From IMG/VR virus record IMGVR_UViG_2529293223_000005: a stretch of 9,093 bases of DNA. The stretch is one strand, 5' to 3'. Every line of letters begins with the position of its first letter. Positions within the stretch are counted from its first letter, which is position 1. Below the pieces are notes generated by a model that was not told the DNA's origin, did not search any database, and saw only the letters and a program-made list of their open reading frames with translations. Positions 1-9,093 of the stretch are shown here, piece by piece. Origin of the DNA: a virus. Taxonomy: Duplodnaviria > Heunggongvirae > Uroviricota > Caudoviricetes. A program made the position numbers and the translations under genes.

Positions 1-939
1 TTATTTGATTTCAATTTTGTCCCACTCCCTGCCTCTGTCATCACGATACTGTGATGCCATGGTGTCCGACTTGTGCCCGAGAAGATGTTGAGCAAACTTA
101 TCGCTTATCTGCTTCTCATAGAGTCTTGCAGACAAATTGCGCAACTCGTGAAAGGTAGGTGGATCCCCTTCGAAGGAAAGACCTGATGCTTTTCGTGCGC
201 GCATAAAATACCTTGATACTGTGCCGGATGAAAGCGGTTCACGACGAGTAGATGCAATTATGGTTTCTCCGCCAAGAATCTCTTTGCATTTATCAAGTGT
301 TTCCTTCATTGATATCCCGAGAGCATCAACATGCAATGTTGTAGGGATGGCAATTTTTACGCCTGTTTTGCTTTGCTCGACATAAAGATATCCATCTACG
401 ATATCAGACCACTTCATTTCGCATAAATCACCAACTCGTTGCCCGGTAACAACAGCCAGTTCCATTGCAAGTCTGAGCCAACATGGTGATGATTCTGCTG
501 CTTGATAAATTTTCAGGTATTCGTCAGCCGTAAGTCTTGATCTCCTTACCTCTGATTTTGCTGCGCGAGTGGCAGCGACCGGGTTTGTTGTTATATGGCC
601 TTCAGCTATTGCCTCTCGGAATGCATCGCTCAGTGTTGATCTGATTAACTTGGCTGATGCCGCCTTGCCCTCGTCTATGTATCCATTGAGCATTGCCGCA
701 ATTTCTTTTGTGGTGATGTCTTCAAGTGGAGCATCAGGCAGCCCCCTCCTTATTGCTTTAATTTTGCTCATGTAATTTATGAGTGTCTTCTGCTTGATTC
801 CTCTGCTGGCGAGGATTTTTTCGTAGCGATCAAGCCATGAATGTAACGTAACAGAATTATCACTGTTGATTCTCGCTGTCAGAGGCTTGTGTTTGTGTCC
901 TGAAAATAACTCAATGTTGGCCTGTATAGCTTCAGTGAT
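1..939 (-). pseudogene. int: Lambda-type tyrosine integrase (Int), 5'-truncated; codons for about residues 45-356 present, N-terminal ~44 codons missing at the IS911 junction
   Basis: Minus-strand translation ends ...HLLGHKSDTMASQYRDDRGREWDKIEIK, which I recognise as the lambda Int C-terminus including the catalytic Tyr region. The reading frame continues in frame upstream of the tracked Met (ITEAIQANIELFSGHKHKPLTARINSDNSVTLHSWLDRYEKILASRGIKQKTLINY) to position 939, where the IS911 terminal repeat begins. Stop codon at 1-3. Confidence 0.9.
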
Positions 940-2255: not shown

Positions 2256-2558
2256 ATGAGCAGAAAAACCCAACGTTACTCTAAAGAGTTCAAAGCCGAA
2301 GCTGTCAGAACGGTTCTTGAAAATCAACTTTCGATCAGTGAAGGCGCTTCCCGATTATCCCTTCCTGAAGGCACTTTAGGACAATGGGTTACCGCCGCCA
2401 GAAAAGGGCTCGGTACTCCTGGTTCCCGCACGGTGGCTGAACTGGAATCTGAAATTCTGCAACTGCGTAAGGCGTTAAATGAAGCTCGCCTTGAGCGAGA
2501 TATATTAAAAAAAGCAACAGCGTATTTTGCACAGGAGTCGCTGAAAAATACGCGTTAA
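2256..2558 (+). CDS. IS600 OrfA (HTH transposase N-terminal protein)
   Basis: 100-aa ORF MSRKTQRYSKEFKAEAVRTVLENQLSISEGASRLSLPEGTLGQWV...ERDILKKATAYFAQESLKNTR. RBS AGGAG lies 7 nt upstream. A7G slippery run at 2507-2514. Confidence 0.85.
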   Translation: MSRKTQRYSKEFKAEAVRTVLENQLSISEGASRLSLPEGTLGQWVTAARKGLGTPGSRTVAELESEILQLRKALNEARLERDILKKATAYFAQESLKNTR

Positions 2559-2593
2559 TCGAACAATGGCGACAACAATTTCCCATTGAAGCG

Positions 2594-3412
2594 ATGTGTC
2601 AGGTATTTGGTGTATCCAGGAGCGGTTATTACAACCGGGTACAGCATGAACCCTCAGACAGAAAACAAAGTGATGAGCGGCTAAAACTGGAGATTAAGGT
2701 GGCACATATCCGCACTCGCGAAACATATGGAACCCGGCGGCTCCAGACGGAGCTGGCAGAGAATGGCATCATCGTTGGTCGTGACCGACTGGCACGTCTT
2801 CGTAAGGAGCTAAGGCTACGCTGTAAGCAGAAACGCAAGTTCAGAGCGACTACGAACCCGAACCACAATCTGCCAGTTGCGCCAAATCTGCTGAACCAGA
2901 CGTTCGCTCCTACAGCACCAAATCAGGTCTGGGTGGCGGACCTGACGTATGTTGCCACACAGGAGGGATGGTTGTACCTCGCTGGCATCAAAGATGTTTA
3001 TACGTGCGAAATTGTCGGCTACGCCATGGGAGAGCGCATGACAAAAGAGCTGACAGGTAAAGCCCTGTTTATGGCGCTCAGGAGCCAGCGCCCACCTGCC
3101 GGGCTAATCCACCACTCTGATCGAGGTTCACAGTACTGCGCATACGATTACCGGGTCATACAGGAGCAGTTTGGTCTGAAAACATCAATGTCGCGTAAAG
3201 GTAACTGTTACGACAACGCTCCGATGGAAAGCTTCTGGGGAACGCTGAAAAATGAGAGCCTGAGCCACTATCGTTTTAATAACCGGGATGAAGCCATCTC
3301 AGTAATACGGGAATACATTGAGATTTTCTACAATCGTCAGCGTCGTCACTCTCGTCTGGGGAATATCTCCCCGGCAGCCTTCAGGGAAAAATATCATCAG
3401 ATTGCTGCTTAA
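2594..3412 (+). CDS. IS600 OrfB (DDE transposase catalytic domain), expressed as OrfAB by -1 frameshift
   Basis: 272-aa ORF with IS3-family transposase motifs (..HHSDRGSQYCA.., ..RKGNCYDNAPMESFW..), in the -1 frame relative to orfA. Confidence 0.85.
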   Translation: MCQVFGVSRSGYYNRVQHEPSDRKQSDERLKLEIKVAHIRTRETYGTRRLQTELAENGIIVGRDRLARLRKELRLRCKQKRKFRATTNPNHNLPVAPNLLNQTFAPTAPNQVWVADLTYVATQEGWLYLAGIKDVYTCEIVGYAMGERMTKELTGKALFMALRSQRPPAGLIHHSDRGSQYCAYDYRVIQEQFGLKTSMSRKGNCYDNAPMESFWGTLKNESLSHYRFNNRDEAISVIREYIEIFYNRQRRHSRLGNISPAAFREKYHQIAA

Positions 3413-3535: not shown

Positions 3536-3817
3536 TCAGAAAGGACAGGGGGAGAATTTTCTCTCCCATTCTTCTTCCGCCCGAGCATAGGCGATCGCTG
3601 AGATATAATCGTTGTACGCCTCTTCAGCTTTTTCGCCAGTGAGTGCCAGTTGGGCTTCTTTGGGTAAAAAAAGGCTGCTCATAAGCAATGGTTTATCGGG
3701 GAACATGCTGATAAGCTCCTGCGCCCGATCATCAATCCATTTATCCTTTTCATCCTGAATATGCTGATTAACCCAGCGACGCTCCTCTATGCGGTCGCAG
3801 GTGAGGTATGCGTTCAT
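3536..3817 (-). CDS. Small acidic protein, candidate Gam-like host-nuclease (RecBCD) inhibitor
   Basis: 93 aa with AGGAG 7 nt upstream of the ATG. The N-terminus MNAYLTCDRIEERRW resembles the start of the short form of lambda Gam (MNAYYIQDRLEAQSW) as I recall it; size and operon position fit. Similarity fades after about 25 residues, so the call is tentative. Confidence 0.45.
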   Translation of the reverse strand: MNAYLTCDRIEERRWVNQHIQDEKDKWIDDRAQELISMFPDKPLLMSSLFLPKEAQLALTGEKAEEAYNDYISAIAYARAEEEWERKFSPCPF

Positions 3818-4130: not shown

Positions 4131-4343
4131 TCAGGCTGGTGAGATTAACGGTTGGCCTTTATGGTTCAGGTAAACTTCGATTGCATCTGAAATAATGCGG
4201 ATTTTTTCAATCAGTGAATGTGCGTAAAGTGCATTATTAACGTTAGCTGACGCCATGTAATAACGCCCGTTGTAAAGAATTGCTGTACCGGGTTTAACGT
4301 CCTCGCGAGAAACTAATGCGGTTCCGTAGTGAGGTTTGAGCAT
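4131..4343 (-). CDS. Hypothetical small protein (70 aa)
   Basis: ORF with a strong RBS (GGAGGA about 7 nt upstream of the ATG). Follows a structured intergenic hairpin. No family recognised. Confidence 0.5.
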   Translation of the reverse strand: MLKPHYGTALVSREDVKPGTAILYNGRYYMASANVNNALYAHSLIEKIRIISDAIEVYLNHKGQPLISPA

Positions 4344-4413: not shown

Positions 4414-4701
4414 TTAAAGATTAACGTTGAAACCAAAGCGGGAAGACTTTTCCGATGTGCGGGAAATATCCAGCAATTTACGGCGCATTTCTTCCGTCAG
4501 ATGCTTGAAGGCGTTAAATTCGGCGACAGCCGCATCGACGTTATAGCCGTTACGACGTAATTCATTAAATATGCGCATTGCAGGGCTTGGCATGTCGAAT
4601 AAGACGGAGGTATCAAGCTGCAATGTATTTCTATCAACATAGTTCATCGTGGCATAGGGGTGATGCTCTGAAAACCACGATAAAGGGAAATTGATATTCA
4701 T
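4414..4701 (-). CDS. Hypothetical small protein (95 aa), start uncertain
   Basis: ORF between the Rha-like gene and the hairpin. No convincing Shine-Dalgarno before either candidate ATG (4701 or 4647). No family recognised. Confidence 0.4.
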   Translation of the reverse strand: MNINFPLSWFSEHHPYATMNYVDRNTLQLDTSVLFDMPSPAMRIFNELRRNGYNVDAAVAEFNAFKHLTEEMRRKLLDISRTSEKSSRFGFNVNL

Positions 4702-4734
4702 CGCAGGAGAAGACAGGGCCAGTTGTTTCTGTTC

Positions 4735-5052
4735 CTATAGTTGTTTTTCCATGCGATCGAATTCAGCAATGTAGGCTTCCTTGAATGCAGCTGCTTTTTT
4801 GCCGGTGAAGCCCATCACCAGAAAAACGAAGCCGTTTTTGGTGATTTGGTAGGCGTTATAGGTATTGCCTCGGTGTTCGAATTTAACCCGCGAAAAGTTG
4901 CGGGTTAAGAATTGCTCAGAGCATTCGAGGGATTCTATTTTCTGAACAACATGGTGATGCTGCTTGCCAAAAAACTCAGCAATCGAAATAGAAGTAGTGA
5001 CGGCGCGACCATTTTCGATGGTTACGTCAGGGTGAGAAAGGGTAGTAGCCAT
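4735..5052 (-). CDS. Rha-family phage regulatory protein (Phage_pRha-like domain)
   Basis: The C-terminal half (ISIAEFFGKQHHHVVQKIESL...YQITKNGFVFLVMGFTGKKAAAFKEAYIAEFDRMEKQL) fits the Rha-family pattern as I remember it (FGK.H.NVLR.I, L.MGFTG.KA..FKEAYI..F..ME). The likely start is the internal ATG at 5050-5052 (MATTLSHPD...), which has GAGGA 7 nt upstream. The ORF-track start at 5211 has no RBS and would overlap the terminator. Confidence 0.7.
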   Translation of the reverse strand: MATTLSHPDVTIENGRAVTTSISIAEFFGKQHHHVVQKIESLECSEQFLTRNFSRVKFEHRGNTYNAYQITKNGFVFLVMGFTGKKAAAFKEAYIAEFDRMEKQL

Positions 5053-5216
5053 AATGACATCCTCAAGTGATAAGTTAATTAACTCACCACCAGAGGTGCT
5101 AATCTCATGGGTGGTGAGACGCACAGGGTTAGCACTACCGGTCACTCGAGAACCCGGCCAGCCTTGCGGCTGCCCCGCACGCCTCACCATAATTTGAATG
5201 TGGCTGTGCATTACGC

Positions 5217-5241
5217 ATAAAAAAACCGCTTCAGCGCGGTT
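5217..5241 (-). terminator. Intrinsic terminator on the leftward (minus-strand) transcript
   Basis: The minus-strand RNA reads AACCGC-GCUGAA-GCGGUU followed by UUUUUUUAU (plus-strand A-run at 5219-5225). It lies about 165 nt upstream of the Rha-like start and is directly preceded on the same transcript by a second GC-rich hairpin at 5262-5281. Confidence 0.5.
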
Positions 5242-5599
5242 ATGCGCTCGAGTAACTTTCGGGGTGCTAATCCCGGCACCCGTTTTATGAGGTGTTCGCC
5301 AAATATAGCCCCGACATCACACGCAGTCAATATCGTCCTTTCTCGGAAATGCTTTGGCGGTGCCGCCTGCACCCCAAAACATTCCCTGTATTGGTCAGCG
5401 CCAACTTCCTGCCAGTGTTGCCCGTTCTCACGCCGTTCTCGCTCTCGCGCGGGGATACTCTCTCATCGACCGGATCGCACCCGATGATACAGCACGTTTA
5501 CGTGTAGGGGTCTAAACAGGTCATTGACGCTGTAAAGCTCCAGATTGTTAAAGAGCATTTTGCGGCGGGTTAAGTCGCGCCGTACGACTGATTTATGTA

Positions 5600-5614: not shown

Positions 5615-5637
5615 GCGATGTTTCTGGCTTGGGTAAA

Positions 5638-5666
5638 ATATAATAAGCGCAACTGACCGCAGTCAA
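5638..5666 (-). promoter_or_regulatory. Candidate leftward early promoter (pL-like) with a possible overlapping operator
   Basis: On the minus strand: TTGACT (plus 5661-5666), 17-nt spacer, TTATAT (plus 5638-5643). The adjacent AATAGCAAGGCTAATA shares the 6/7-mers AATAGC and GCTAATA with the cI-cro intergenic region (7695-7734), which would fit a shared CI operator half-site. An AT-rich tract lies upstream. Confidence 0.3.
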
Positions 5667-5895
5667 TAGCAAGGCTAATAATTTAATTTTAATCTATGTG
5701 ATTGATTTTTAGATTAATTTATTTATGTAAAAAATATAAGCGAGGATAATGCAGGTGGTGAGTTATGGAGGATGCGCAAAGAAAAACCGGCGCTGAGGCC
5801 GGTTACTCTGTGTTAGATTTGGTGTGAGGGAACCCCCTGATAACACTAAGAAAAGCAGTGAACAGTCAAAGAGAACCCAGCGGGCTTGGTGGCTT

Positions 5896-5924
5896 TTGAC
5901 AAAAACATCGCCTGTAACTATAAT
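5896..5924 (+). promoter_or_regulatory. Consensus sigma70 promoter upstream of hicA, with overlapping palindrome
   Basis: TTGACA (5896-5901), 17-bp spacer, TATAAT (5919-5924): a perfect match to consensus. The -10 sits inside the palindrome AACTA-TAAT-TAGTT (5916-5929), followed by TTGCAA, a plausible autoregulatory operator. Confidence 0.6.
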
Positions 5925-5953
5925 TAGTTGCAATGTAGCGAAGATGAGATTAT

Positions 5954-6208
5954 GTGGGTATGGGGAAAGCAGATAAGCTACTGGAAAAGTTTTTAAACAG
6001 TAAAAAAACGTTTGAATGGGATGAGTTGGTCGTTTTGTTTTCCTCTCTGGGATATGTCAAAAAGGAAATGCAGGGCTCAAGAGTGCGGTTTTTCAATGCT
6101 GAAATCAACCACACCATATTAATGCATCGCCCACATCCAGAAAGTTATATTAAAGGTGGAACGCTGAAAGCGATTAAACAGAATCTGAAAGAGGCTGGGG
6201 TATTATGA
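5954..6208 (+). CDS. hicA: HicA-family toxin (type II toxin-antitoxin, mRNA interferase-like)
   Basis: 84-aa ORF (GTG start at 5954, or ATG at 5960). The layout ...WDELVVLFSSLGY...GSRVRF...MHRPHP...GTLKAIKQNLKEAGVL fits the HicA/YcfA family pattern. The stop overlaps the next ORF's start (ATGA at 6205-6208), and toxin-first order is the usual HicAB arrangement. Confidence 0.7.
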   Translation: MGMGKADKLLEKFLNSKKTFEWDELVVLFSSLGYVKKEMQGSRVRFFNAEINHTILMHRPHPESYIKGGTLKAIKQNLKEAGVL

Positions 6209-6549
6209 ATCATCTAAAATATAAAGGATATTTAGGTACAGTAGAACCAGATTTTGAAAATAATATCCTGTACGGAAAACTGGCGTTTATTCGAGACCTG
6301 GTAACTTATGAGGCTTCTACATTAGCTGAACTGGAACAGGAGTTTAAGACATCGGTTGAGCTGTATTTACAGTCTTGTGTGGAGGATGGAAAGGAGCCTG
6401 ATACCCCGTTTAAAGGTGTGTTTAACGTCAGACTTGATCCAGAACTGCATCGTCGGGTCGCTGAAATGGCGATGGAAGAAGATTTATCACTGAACGCCTT
6501 TGTTAATAAGGCGCTGGAAAAAGAAGTCAACCATCACACAGGGGCTTAA
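6205..6549 (+). CDS. hicB: HicB-family antitoxin (RNase H-like fold N-domain plus C-terminal ribbon-helix-helix DNA-binding tail)
   Basis: 114 aa. MNHLKYKGYLGTVEPDFENNILYGKLAFIRDLVTYEASTLAELEQEFKTSVELYL...PFKGVFNVRLDPELHRRVAEMAMEEDLSLNAFVNKALEKEV matches the HicB pattern (Y.GY.G.VE.D...G.......E..T..EL...F...V..YL; NVR+.PELH...A..A.....SLN.FV...L). Translationally coupled to hicA. Confidence 0.75.
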   Translation: MNHLKYKGYLGTVEPDFENNILYGKLAFIRDLVTYEASTLAELEQEFKTSVELYLQSCVEDGKEPDTPFKGVFNVRLDPELHRRVAEMAMEEDLSLNAFVNKALEKEVNHHTGA

Positions 6550-6636
6550 TGTTCCCTTCGTCTTTGACATCCTCACCGCCGAAGAATGGGGAATTTACGG
6601 CGCACTGGTAAATGGTGGGGCGAGCAGGAGGCAAAC

Positions 6637-6665
6637 AAAACCCGGCACCAAGGCCGGGTTTTGTT
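6637..6665. terminator. Bidirectional intrinsic terminator between the convergent hicAB and cI units
   Basis: AAAA-CCCGGC-ACCAAG-GCCGGG-TTTTGTT: a perfect 6-bp GC stem flanked by an A-run and a T-run, so it reads as a terminator in both directions. About 90 nt downstream of the hicB stop. Confidence 0.7.
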
Positions 6666-6703
6666 ATTGGTGCATTTGGCAGGTTGTAATATCTGGTCCA
6701 TAA

Positions 6704-6735
6704 GCCAAAGTAAAAACAGGCTTGTTGATCAAGCC
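6704..6735 (-). terminator. Candidate intrinsic terminator for the cI transcript
   Basis: Minus-strand RNA GGCUUG-AUCAA-CAAGCC followed by UGUUUUUACUUU, about 200 nt downstream of the cI stop. Confidence 0.35.
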
Positions 6736-6936
6736 CATGTTCTTTAATGATTGAATCATTTTTCCTTGCTAAGTATTTCTTCCACTTGTTGTGTCAAGGA
6801 TTTGTCTTTGTTCATTTATGGCTCACTTGATTGCGACTGCTCCCCGCCCGCATTGGGCGAGGGTTCTCGGAGATTTTTCGCTGAAAAAGGAAATAAAATA
6901 GCCTCCCTGCAAGGTTATTGATATCATCCTGTGAGT

Positions 6937-7656
6937 TCAATCAAAAGTCTCATCATTCCACTGCGACTTTATGACCTTTCCGACAAACTGGCAGTTTTCG
7001 TTACACTCAATCATGTCGAATCGTGGGTTGAGTGGCTCCAGGTACGCTTTACCGCTCTCACGAATGAATCGTTTGAAGGTGAATTCATCGCCATTCATTC
7101 GGGCCACGCAAAAATCGCCATCCTCAATCTCCCGCTCAGGGTCAACGAGTATCAGCATCCCTTCGGGGAAACTGGGTTTACCACCCTGCGGCGCGGTCAT
7201 TGAATGCCCCTTGACCTCCAGCCAGAACGACCTGTCACTGGCTTTTGTGGTGGTGGAGATCCACTTAATCGCATCCTTTGCGGTGTACGAAAAATCATCC
7301 ATTGAGAAAGCTCCAGCCTGTACGCAGGAGAGTAACGGATATTCGTAATATTTCTCGAACAGGTTACGCCTGTTTCCCGGTGTGTGGGTACGAATACTGC
7401 GTAACAAATCACTCAGATCTGGATTAATTTCTTCCGCAGGAACCTGTAATAAAGCCGCAAACTTAAGGGTATTTTCAGTATTTAACGCAATTTTTGCGTT
7501 CAATAACTGACTAACAGCCCCCTGCGTTTTGAAGCCGAGGATATCTGCGGCTTTTTCCTGGCTTAGGGATAGCTGTTTCCGTTTTTCATCCCAGATTTTG
7601 CGCAGTCGTTCAGCGTTCTGGATGTCTTTGTCAGTAATTGTAATTTTCTTCGTCAT
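6937..7656 (-). CDS. cI: Lambda CI-like prophage repressor (N-terminal HTH domain plus C-terminal S24 LexA-like autopeptidase domain)
   Basis: The C-terminal half ([91 protein letters not shown]) is close to lambda CI as I recall it, including the Ser (GHSMTAP) and Lys (FTFKRF) catalytic dyad and an Ala-Gly cleavage site (VQAGAF). The N-terminal HTH domain is diverged. Start taken at ATG 7654-7656 (MTKKITIT...) with GGAGG 7 nt upstream; the ORF-track start at 7695 is an upstream extension. Confidence 0.9.
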
Positions 7657-7707
7657 AGTGCCTCCAATTTTATTAGCAACACAAATACTTATCAAATAGC
7701 TAGCCTG

Positions 7708-7735
7708 TTGACATTTAAATCAGGTAAGCTAATAT
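7708..7735 (+). promoter_or_regulatory. PR-like promoter for the Cro-like gene, within the cI-cro divergent control region
   Basis: TTGACA (7708-7713), 16-bp spacer, TAATAT (7730-7735), then GGAGG (7751-7755) and ATG at 7762. The region carries the palindromes TAGCTA/GCTAGC and ATTTAAAT, and AGCTAGCCTG / CAGGTAAGCT flank the -35. A weak-consensus candidate PRM (TAATAA -10) lies on the minus strand at about 7663-7700. Operators were not resolved. Confidence 0.5.
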
Positions 7736-7761
7736 CGGAAAATTGAAATGGGAGGATCTCT

Positions 7762-8023: not shown

Positions 8024-8305
8024 GTGAACAGGCAAATCAAAACGGTTATGCCCGATCAGTACTGTGATGCTGATCGGGACTGGATACAGGAGCAATTGTT
8101 ACAGCTAGACCCGACCACCAGGGTAAAAATTGCAGCAGAGTACGCGAGAGTGTACCAGGAAGAGTGGGACAAGGAGCCTGTATCGTTCAGGAAGGGCAAC
8201 AGGGCAAGACGGAGCGCCAACACCCGGTTACGGGTGTATGTCCAGAAGTACGCGAGAGCCAGCCGTGGCTGGATGCTTTCGCCAGTAGCGATACGGAAGG
8301 AATAG
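8024..8305 (+). CDS. Hypothetical basic protein in the cII position (93 aa, GTG start)
   Basis: ORF starts 22 nt after the cro-like stop with GGAGG 5 nt upstream of the GTG. Arg/Lys-rich C-terminus (FRKGNRARRSANTRLRVYVQKYARASRGW). No similarity to lambda CII recognised. The RBS is half of a small inverted repeat (CCTCC-ATC-GGAGG at 8006-8018). Confidence 0.5.
   Translation: MNRQIKTVMPDQYCDADRDWIQEQLLQLDPTTRVKIAAEYARVYQEEWDKEPVSFRKGNRARRSANTRLRVYVQKYARASRGWMLSPVAIRKE

Positions 8306-8718: not shown

Positions 8719-9093
<375 letters not shown>

Follow-up and report, generated by a model that had tools for sequence, protein, structure and literature searches.

A HicAB toxin–antitoxin cassette with a GSR-type toxin in the cargo slot beside cI of a Stx phage-like prophage remnant

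We describe a hicA-hicB gene pair carried by a 9,093-nucleotide stretch of viral DNA (Caudoviricetes; IMG/VR record IMGVR_UViG_2529293223_000005). The whole stretch is hereafter called the window. It is an Oslovirus/Shiga toxin (Stx) phage-like prophage remnant of Shigella, riddled with insertion sequence (IS) elements, and the pair lies downstream of its cI-type repressor gene. Our principal conclusion, to which we give a probability of about 0.8, is that the pair is an intact and autonomous type II HicAB toxin–antitoxin (TA) cassette, carried as a moron. The biological effect is most likely that of a selfish, horizontally mobile TA unit favouring its own retention or competition. An anti-phage benefit is unproven. 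Feature coordinates are collected in Table 1.

Parts of this picture are already known. The exact proteins are named HicA and HicB in public annotation, a hicAB pair at the position of rexAB was annotated years ago, and a pair of the same subfamily from IncX4 plasmids has been tested. The sole unexplored angle is the chemistry of the GSR subfamily of HicA, which lacks the His found to be essential in the literature.

Results

The hicAB genes form a self-contained unit

The genes are arranged as in type II hicAB systems. Thus, the toxin gene is upstream, and it overlaps hicB through the sequence ATGA at positions 6205–6208. An alternative in-frame GTG start for hicA is present at 5954; homologues all begin MGK or MSK. 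Upstream of hicA is a promoter that agrees with the σ70 consensus throughout both hexamers. An exact match of this kind occurs once in the window, compared with 0.01 expected from shuffles. By its sequence, this promoter would drive a translationally coupled hicA-hicB mRNA. The preliminary description of this DNA had listed a perfect TTGACA-17-TATAAT promoter, a palindrome over the −10 element and a toxin-first, ATGA-coupled pair on the strand opposite cI. We recovered each of these. Antisense open reading frames (ORFs) within hicAB (5950–6117 and 6306–6530) were disregarded, with nothing supporting them. A scan against Rfam gave no match within 5896–6665; C4 and isrK were the only matches, further left.

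The cassette ends at a hairpin with perfect 13-nt arms (6634–6646 and 6653–6665) and a 6-nt loop. Its folding energy is −23.7 kcal/mol (z = −4.2) on the plus strand and −22.5 kcal/mol (z = −4.7) on the minus strand, and each strand has a U-run. This terminator was recovered by a repeat search and by folding; the promoter and terminator scanner missed it, probably by stretching the stem into A/T tracts. The preliminary description had hicAB and cI sharing one bidirectional terminator. The bidirectional terminator is present, but it is not shared directly with cI: the remnant of a 56-amino-acid ORF on the minus strand intervenes, and the stop codon of this ORF overlaps a terminator arm. Alignment places a 19-bp deletion, between CTTGCT direct repeats at ~6765–6770, as the cause of the frameshift in the window copy. 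In the E. coli relatives L001 and L002 the ORF is intact and occupies the interval between cI and the terminator, on the same strand as cI. A second terminator-like site on the minus strand (6738..6716) was considered as the cI terminator and rejected, being inside the small ORF and weakly folded (−12.4 kcal/mol). The small ORF accompanies hicAB in E. coli prophages and, in L002, abuts an SDH Clp-fold protease gene.

It follows from the opposite strand, the separate promoter and the intervening bidirectional terminator that hicAB is not co-transcribed with cI from PRM. To the left of hicAB, the leftward terminator hairpin is kept in loci L002, L004 and L005. This hairpin is likely the equivalent of Timm, closing the cI/cargo transcription unit. 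The two terminators would insulate the cassette from the cI/PRM transcript and so permit cI-independent expression. In the early-left region, OL and the cI operators were not identified; the PL-like promoter and the leftward terminator were the only elements found there.

The hairpins on either side of hicAB resemble one another. Positions 5776–5802 (GCAAAGAAAAACCGGCGCTGAGGCCGG) and 6631–6657 (GCAAACAAAACCCGGCACCAAGGCCGG) are 81% identical over 27 nt. Judged by this likeness, the terminator may have been duplicated, or the hairpins may serve as a recombination site in the exchange of cargo.

HicA and HicB belong to class 4 of the HicAB family

HicA matches the Pfam family HicA_toxin (PF07927) with 45.1 bits against a cut-off of 27, across profile positions 1–58 of 58. 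HicB matches PF05534 with 71 bits (cut-off 21). The corresponding PHROG families are phrog_8887, annotated 'toxin' (E = 9e-35), and phrog_9151, annotated 'HicB-like antitoxin' (E = 1.5e-50); the PHROG category of both is 'moron'. NCBIfam includes no HicA model, and HicB gave a sub-threshold ribbon-helix-helix (RHH) match only. A phmmer search of HicA against PDB sequences returned nothing at E ≤ 1, and a profile search gave marginal HicA matches only (E = 0.3). Since similarity to the solved HicA sequences was too low for phmmer, we compared folds.

The AlphaFold2 (AF2) model of HicA, with a mean predicted local distance difference test (pLDDT) score of 90.4, has an αβββα core (helix 20–29; strands 32–36, 41–46 and 51–56; helix 66–79) and an extra N-terminal helix (residues 3–13). 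The best Foldseek matches were Thermus thermophilus TTHA1913 (1whz) and Burkholderia pseudomallei HicA (6g26_E/F), with a probability of 1.00 and target template modelling (TM) scores of 0.64–0.72; 4c26 was also matched. The HicB model (pLDDT 88) has strands within residues 4–37, a helix at 40–60, and helices at 79–91 and 96–112. It matched B. pseudomallei HicB (6g26_A/B), TTHA0281 (2dsy), Yersinia pestis HicB3 (4p78_A) and 6g1c. The C-terminal part matched the RHH protein CopG (1ea4_B), in agreement with a separate CopG RHH match and with matches to Arc-like PHROGs. Thus, HicB is modelled as an N-terminal partial RNase-H-like domain followed by a C-terminal RHH DNA-binding domain. With both proteins above their Pfam thresholds, and both models matching solved structures, the family assignment made in the preliminary description is secure.

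HicB is 59–61% identical to Haemophilus influenzae HicB (Q9LA69). In the scheme of Gerdes, class 4 comprises hicAB pairs in which HicB bears an RHH domain (PMC10865869). The pair described here is a class 4 HicAB, in the subfamily that includes H. influenzae-type HicB and the IncX4 system HicAᴼB. [quoted passage not shown] In contrast to canonical HicA, the window HicA has Arg in place of the β2 His, the extra N-terminal helix and an additional invariant residue, His56. Taking the fold from the models, and toxicity and neutralisation from the IncX4 literature, HicA would be a small toxin with a dsRBD fold, and the N-terminal domain of HicB would neutralise it.

The nearest characterised system is that of IncX4 plasmids (pJIE143 and p14EC007a; Lin et al., 2025, NAR, PMC11878559; Bustamante and Iredell, 2019). 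It is of the same subfamily; its toxin gene likewise precedes hicB and the two ORFs overlap, the type that Lin et al. name HicAᴼB. Between the window HicA and that of the IncX4 copy compared here (L003), 3 of 82 residues differ (~96% identity), none of them in the motifs considered below, and the pair as a whole is ~95% identical at the protein level. HicAᴼ of p14EC007a is toxic and is fully neutralised by HicB (PMC11878559). Between the window and L003, the ratio of non-synonymous to synonymous substitution rates (dN/dS) is 0.06 for hicA and 0.04 for hicB. By this measure both genes are selectively constrained, with strong purifying selection on hicA.

A conserved palindrome is a probable HicB operator

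We compared the DNA upstream of hicA between copies of the cassette. The −35 element, −10 element and palindrome are identical in the prophage and IncX4 copies, while the spacer, the upstream region and the 5' untranslated region diverge. When copies from Photorhabdus and a Salmonella plasmid are added (HicA 62–76% identity), only TTGAC and TGTAACTA-N4-TAGTTAC remain conserved upstream of hicA. Of the 14 half-site positions, 12 are the same in E. coli, IncX4, Photorhabdus and Salmonella; variation is seen in the four central bases, and hence in the −10 hexamer. The Avibacterium copy retains GTAACTATAATTAGTA upstream. No second copy of the site was found elsewhere in the window.

Characterised HicBs autorepress through palindromes in their own promoters (PMC10865869). 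Because the palindrome is conserved from E. coli to Avibacterium while its flanks diverge, as expected for the operator of an RHH dimer, it is a probable operator for HicB. Either HicB itself or its complex with HicA would bind GTAACTA-N4-TAGTTAC over the −10 element and would repress the promoter.

A search for repeats common to the OR region (7657–7761) and the promoter region identified no cI-operator-like repeat at the hicAB promoter. Weak 14-mers shared with OR (2 mismatches), at 5966–5980 in hicA and at 6765–6780, were taken as chance. The first of these places lies in the first codons of hicA, where 15 nt (AAAGCAGATAAGCTA) match 13 of the 15 positions at 7717–7731 in the cI/cro operator region (AAATCAGGTAAGCTA). 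The resemblance is probably fortuitous, many repeats of similar size being listed. From the sequence we infer that the hicAB promoter is cI-independent yet autorepressed by HicB. Simple constitutive expression from 5896–5924, as first proposed, is therefore unlikely. An autorepressed promoter is also in keeping with the IncX4 copy, whose hicA mRNA level is unremarkable: hicA and hicB mRNA levels are alike, and hicA mRNA is not raised relative to purA (PMC11878559).

The GSR motif is a subfamily trait

A profile alignment puts HicA residue Arg41 opposite position 24 of the B. pseudomallei protein; that position is the catalytic His, replaced by Ala in the H24A mutant (4c26). Hence, the protein does not have the canonical GSH motif: Arg41 stands where His24 (B. 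pseudomallei), His28 (Y. pestis HicA3) and His23 (E. coli) are found. Wherever HicA has been mutated to date, the His at the start of β2 proved essential (review PMC11594946; also gonococcal HicA). The toxin might then be catalytically dead, the pair persisting as a HicB regulator or as an antitoxin decoy against host HicA-type systems; phage-borne antitoxins are known as agents of counter-defence (PMC11594946).

The conservation of the motif argues against such decay. G39-S40-R41-x-R43 (GSRVR) and H56-R-P-H59-P (HRPHP) are invariant in 17 homologues with identities down to 38%. A profile search of 1.84 billion cluster representatives yielded 1526 HicA relatives at E ≤ 0.001. Of the best 152 of these, 134 carry Arg at position 41 and 1 carries His; 140 retain His56, and 142 retain His59. 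HicA of Avibacterium (Pasteurellaceae), whose HicB is 63% identical to the window HicB, has GSRVRF and HKPHP. The low dN/dS of hicA, the toxicity and HicB rescue of a HicA of this subfamily from IncX4 (the HicA of L003, the IncX4 copy compared, is 3 residues away from the window protein), and the confinement of the palindrome to the cassette's own promoter also speak against a dead toxin, which we consider highly improbable.

Since Arg41 is common across the subfamily, and the published IncX4 HicA of the subfamily is toxic, the GSR motif is by its sequence distribution an active-site variant and a conserved subfamily trait, not a lesion of the window copy. We accordingly place the toxin in a GSR-type subfamily of PF07927 and not among the canonical GSH HicAs. 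The preliminary description was right about the substitution, which is compatible with toxicity and is not peculiar to this copy.

In the HicA model, Arg41 opens the strand 41–46 and His56 closes the adjacent strand 51–56. The two residues should, on this model, be spatial neighbours. With Arg41 standing for the catalytic His, the invariant His56 and His59 of the H-R/K-P-H-P motif would probably supply the catalytic chemistry.

The cassette occupies a variable cargo slot beside cI

The window is homologous to the Stx2 phage Lyz12581Vzw (Oslovirus) up to position 5865, and again from 6923, which is 14 bp short of the cI stop codon. The slot so defined lies between cI and the leftward terminator and PL-like promoter. 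Its conserved left junction reads ...GCAGCGAACAG. The cI region itself is 97% identical in nucleotide sequence to loci L004 and L005.

The contents of the slot differ between elements. Phage Lyz12581Vzw carries two genes matching the Panacea-domain TA pair of E. coli JNEC-KY204, together with a BsuBI-type restriction–modification (R-M) system. Phage P13374 (O104:H4) has an R-M system only. In E. coli JNEC-KY204 the slot holds a Panacea-domain TA pair, hicAB and a small membrane-anchored protein, and in E. coli 2015C-3121 it holds hicAB, the 56-amino-acid ORF, an SDH Clp-fold protease and a membrane-anchored protein. The Stx1c prophage of E. coli strain 48 (CP166879) has the arrangement of the window with the 56-amino-acid ORF intact.

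A short sequence (…AAGAA..GC.GAACAG) flanks the Panacea-domain TA pair in L004 (~5144–5159 and 6052–6067) and occurs at 5850–5865 of the window. It coincides with the breakpoint of homology between cargo variants. Going by this position, the sequence may serve as a junction or boundary for stacking cassettes there.

The cassette has the features of a phage moron. It has its own promoter and terminator, and two phages with the same flanks on both sides, Lyz12581Vzw and P13374, lack it. Its antisense orientation to cI, its separate promoter and the bidirectional terminator make hicAB a textbook moron. This agrees with the earlier view of a self-contained cargo unit on the strand opposite cI. The cI-adjacent slot of Oslovirus-type Stx phages is thus a site at which R-M systems and TA pairs are swapped, and a place to seek lysogen-expressed defence genes.

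The preliminary description had also equated the slot with that of rexAB in lambda. The cI-adjacent cargo position bears this out, and there is a precedent. In mEp234 (GenBank EF120460), hicA-hicB-orf is annotated between cI and Timm/OL1-3, which is the rexAB position, and HK106 and mEp506 are alike. The mEp234-type genes differ from those of the window in several respects. They are on the cI strand, where transcription together with cI from PRM is presumed, and a third ORF comes after them; their HicB has 152 amino acids, and the immunity region is that of lambda, not Oslovirus-like. The mEp234-type HicA is a long form of ~85 amino acids, 34% identical to the window HicA, with GSG in place of the canonical His motif and the HEPHP motif kept. 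The likeness to lambda rexA-rexB is positional: both pairs are beside cI, within the immunity region and before the terminator preceding PL, and expression in the lysogen is expected. There is no sequence or structural kinship, and rexAB is co-transcribed with cI, whereas hicAB is antisense with its own promoter.

The same cassette is mostly plasmid-borne

The unit extending from the −35 element to 16 nt past the hicB stop codon (window 5894–6565) is 90.7% identical in nucleotide sequence to IncX4 hicAB. This promoter-to-stop unit is found on hundreds of conjugative plasmids, IncX4 and others. In 5426 complete E. coli genomes, 568 of the 756 places that matched the queried stretch are on plasmids, the chromosomal matches being mostly to the flanks only; the cassette lies within a prophage in ~9 of these genomes. 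Among deposited phage genomes, none has hicAB at the nucleotide level; their matches are to the flanks alone. Chromosomal copies in Photorhabdus and Avibacterium sit between housekeeping genes. A TA cassette of plasmid type has passed between IncX4 plasmids and Stx-type prophages together with its promoter and probable operator. The preliminary description had preferred phage exclusion to plasmid-style addiction, a preference that overlooks the overwhelmingly plasmid-borne distribution of the same cassette.

The surroundings of the two copies differ. The IncX4 copy belongs to a conjugative-plasmid replicon, adjoining taxA/taxC, whereas the window copy is in a prophage. The IncX4 copy also has a different upstream hairpin and is without the terminator at 6634–6665, which lies outside the plasmid homology; that homology stops near 6565.

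Among E. coli plasmids of ~60–65 kb (for example H137–H143 and H145–H153), those of ~60 kb carry the cassette with homology that begins at window position 5913, the base preceding the palindrome, so that the −35 element is excluded. Others hold just a 260-bp internal fragment of hicB (window 6186–6446), which is labelled HicB in RefSeq and has no feature in PLSDB.

Shigella boydii and S. dysenteriae have HicA and HicB sequences identical to those of the window. The exact HicB was traced to five Shigella chromosomal loci, all of them IS-ridden remnants that have decayed in different ways. In these, hicA is intact in 5 of 5 and cI is broken in 3 of 5. The broken cI genes (L017, L018 and L020; CP026824, CP026845 and CP026875) are reduced to fragments of 121 and/or 51 amino acids, beside an intact hicA (82 amino acids) and hicB. 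In two of the five loci the remnant adjoins a gene of the pectinesterase Pfam family, which we take to be ybhC, on the att-lambda side.

Retention, competition and phage exclusion

Several observations weigh against a functional, self-retaining cassette. To our knowledge, RNase activity has been shown for no GSR-type HicA, and the role given to His56 and His59 draws on conservation and on strand pairing in the model. Binding of HicB to the palindrome is our inference from conservation and from the behaviour of characterised HicBs. Retention of hicA among the Shigella remnants comes from a biased sample, the loci having been retrieved by an exact, intact HicB. The link to p14EC007a is by IncX4 typing and the overlapping-ORF architecture of the plasmids compared. 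In plasmid competition, the advantage conferred by the IncX4 system was just 3:1 at generation 80 (PMC11878559). Classical addiction appears weak for the nearest ortholog.

We also considered whether hicAB is a functional analogue of rexAB, as proposed in the preliminary description. Here, the pair would be expressed in the lysogen, and a superinfecting phage that shuts down host transcription, or otherwise frees HicA, would trigger degradation of RNA, giving abortive infection or exclusion. Such a role is compatible with a mobile TA unit and does not exclude it. The slot is a hot spot for cargo: related phages have there a BsuBI-type R-M system, a Panacea-domain TA pair, and the gene of an SDH Clp-fold protease with that of a small membrane-anchored protein beside it. 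Also, hicAB is at the rexAB position in the lambdoid phages mEp234 and HK106. The hicAB promoter is without a cI-operator-like sequence, so that expression in the lysogen is plausible, and the weak addiction of the IncX4 ortholog leaves room for another role. From the genomic contexts of HicA, Gerdes has suggested that it acts in defence (PMC10865869).

Conversely, a PADLOC search gave no match for HicA, HicB, cI or five neighbouring ORFs; for HicA and HicB no defence family was matched at E ≤ 0.01, and their Pfam matches were to HicA and HicB only. Three other HicAB systems have given negative results. The prophage HicAB2 pair of Pseudomonas putida had no defence or stability phenotype (PMC12894663), removal of hicAB from the IncI2 plasmid p45 left resistance to lytic coliphages unchanged, and no phage was found to be targeted by the HicAB-like pair of mycobacteriophage Adephagia (review PMC11594946). 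HicAB2 of P. putida P1 and Adephagia gp90/gp91 are functional TA pairs on temperate phages or prophages, and have been proposed as stabilisers or defences; their sequences and hosts differ from those of the window, and for neither was a defence phenotype found. An exclusion phenotype has been demonstrated for rexAB and none for the window hicAB. The cassette is far commoner on plasmids than in prophages, and in other genera it also lies between housekeeping genes. Exclusion is thus the part of the preliminary description for which we found no supporting data. We regard it as unlikely, and keep it in consideration because of the neighbours in the slot and the weak addiction of the IncX4 ortholog.

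A still more speculative, and rather doubtful, proposal combines these ideas. GSR-type HicAs, including those paired with H. influenzae-type HicB and the IncX4 and Stx-prophage copies, would have a relocated active site (His56 and His59 beside Arg41 and Arg43), and those in the cI-adjacent slot of Stx-type prophages would have a cI-independent abortive-infection role in the lysogen. For the mobile, self-retaining TA cassette that we favour, hicAB would likewise be expressed in the lysogen.

The surrounding prophage is decayed

Table 1. Features of the window
Feature	Coordinates	Strand	Details
Variable cargo slot downstream of cI	5866..6922		Holds hicAB and a small-ORF remnant
hicAB promoter	5896..5924	+	TTGACA 5896–5901, 17-nt spacer, TATAAT 5919–5924; 12/12 σ70 match
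Palindrome GTAACTA-TAAT-TAGTTGC	5914..5931		Overlaps −10; probable HicB (RHH) operator
hicA	5960..6208	+	ATG at 5960, stop 6206–6208; 82-amino-acid toxin of the GSR-type HicA subfamily
hicB	6205..6549	+	114-amino-acid antitoxin
Bidirectional intrinsic terminator	6634..6665	both	Ends hicAB (+) and the small ORF/cI transcript (−)
Remnant of 56-amino-acid ORF	6664..6815	−	phrog_28875, unknown function, E = 1e-30; start 6815, stop 6664–6666
cI-type repressor	6937..7656	−	HTH_3 and Peptidase_S24 (Pfam); 239 amino acids from ATG; context defining the slot
Leftward terminator hairpin	5777..5812	−	Good U-run for leftward transcripts only; left edge of the cargo slot
PL-like promoter	5666..5637	−	10/12 match
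Ash + Rha antirepressor gene	4414–5211	−	In-frame stop 4735–4737 (W-to-stop); pseudogene
C4 antisense RNA	5107–5194	−	Rfam 78.6 bits, above gathering score
isrK Hfq-binding small RNA	5219–5295	−	Rfam 61.6 bits, above gathering score
Gam-like nuclease inhibitor	3536–3817	−	phrog_1050; intact
Kil septation inhibitor	4131–4343	−	phrog_294; intact
cII-position ORF	8024–8305	+	phrog_852, no Pfam family; intact

The window carries several lesions. The integrase gene (int) is truncated next to an IS element, the Rha/Ash antirepressor gene has a nonsense codon and the 56-amino-acid ORF is frameshifted; hicA, hicB, cI and cro are intact. At the nonsense codon, the antirepressor reads EKQL*EQKQL in the window and EKQLWEQKQL in Shigella locus L018. 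The genes for C4 and isrK are just upstream of, and overlap, the start of the Ash/Rha ORF. They form an antirepressor control module of the P1 immI-like or Gifsy isrK type, on the early-left side of the lambdoid remnant.

The integrase ORF (1–771, minus strand, 256 amino acids) apparently lacks its N-terminal part and abuts two IS elements (976–2180 and 2256–3412, both plus strand). A third IS copy (8755–9093, plus strand) cuts the right side after the cII-like gene, leaving the prophage as a short remnant. Reading from the ORF translations, we take the end of the integrase (...REWDKIEIK) to be lambda Int-like and the IS elements to be of the IS3 family.

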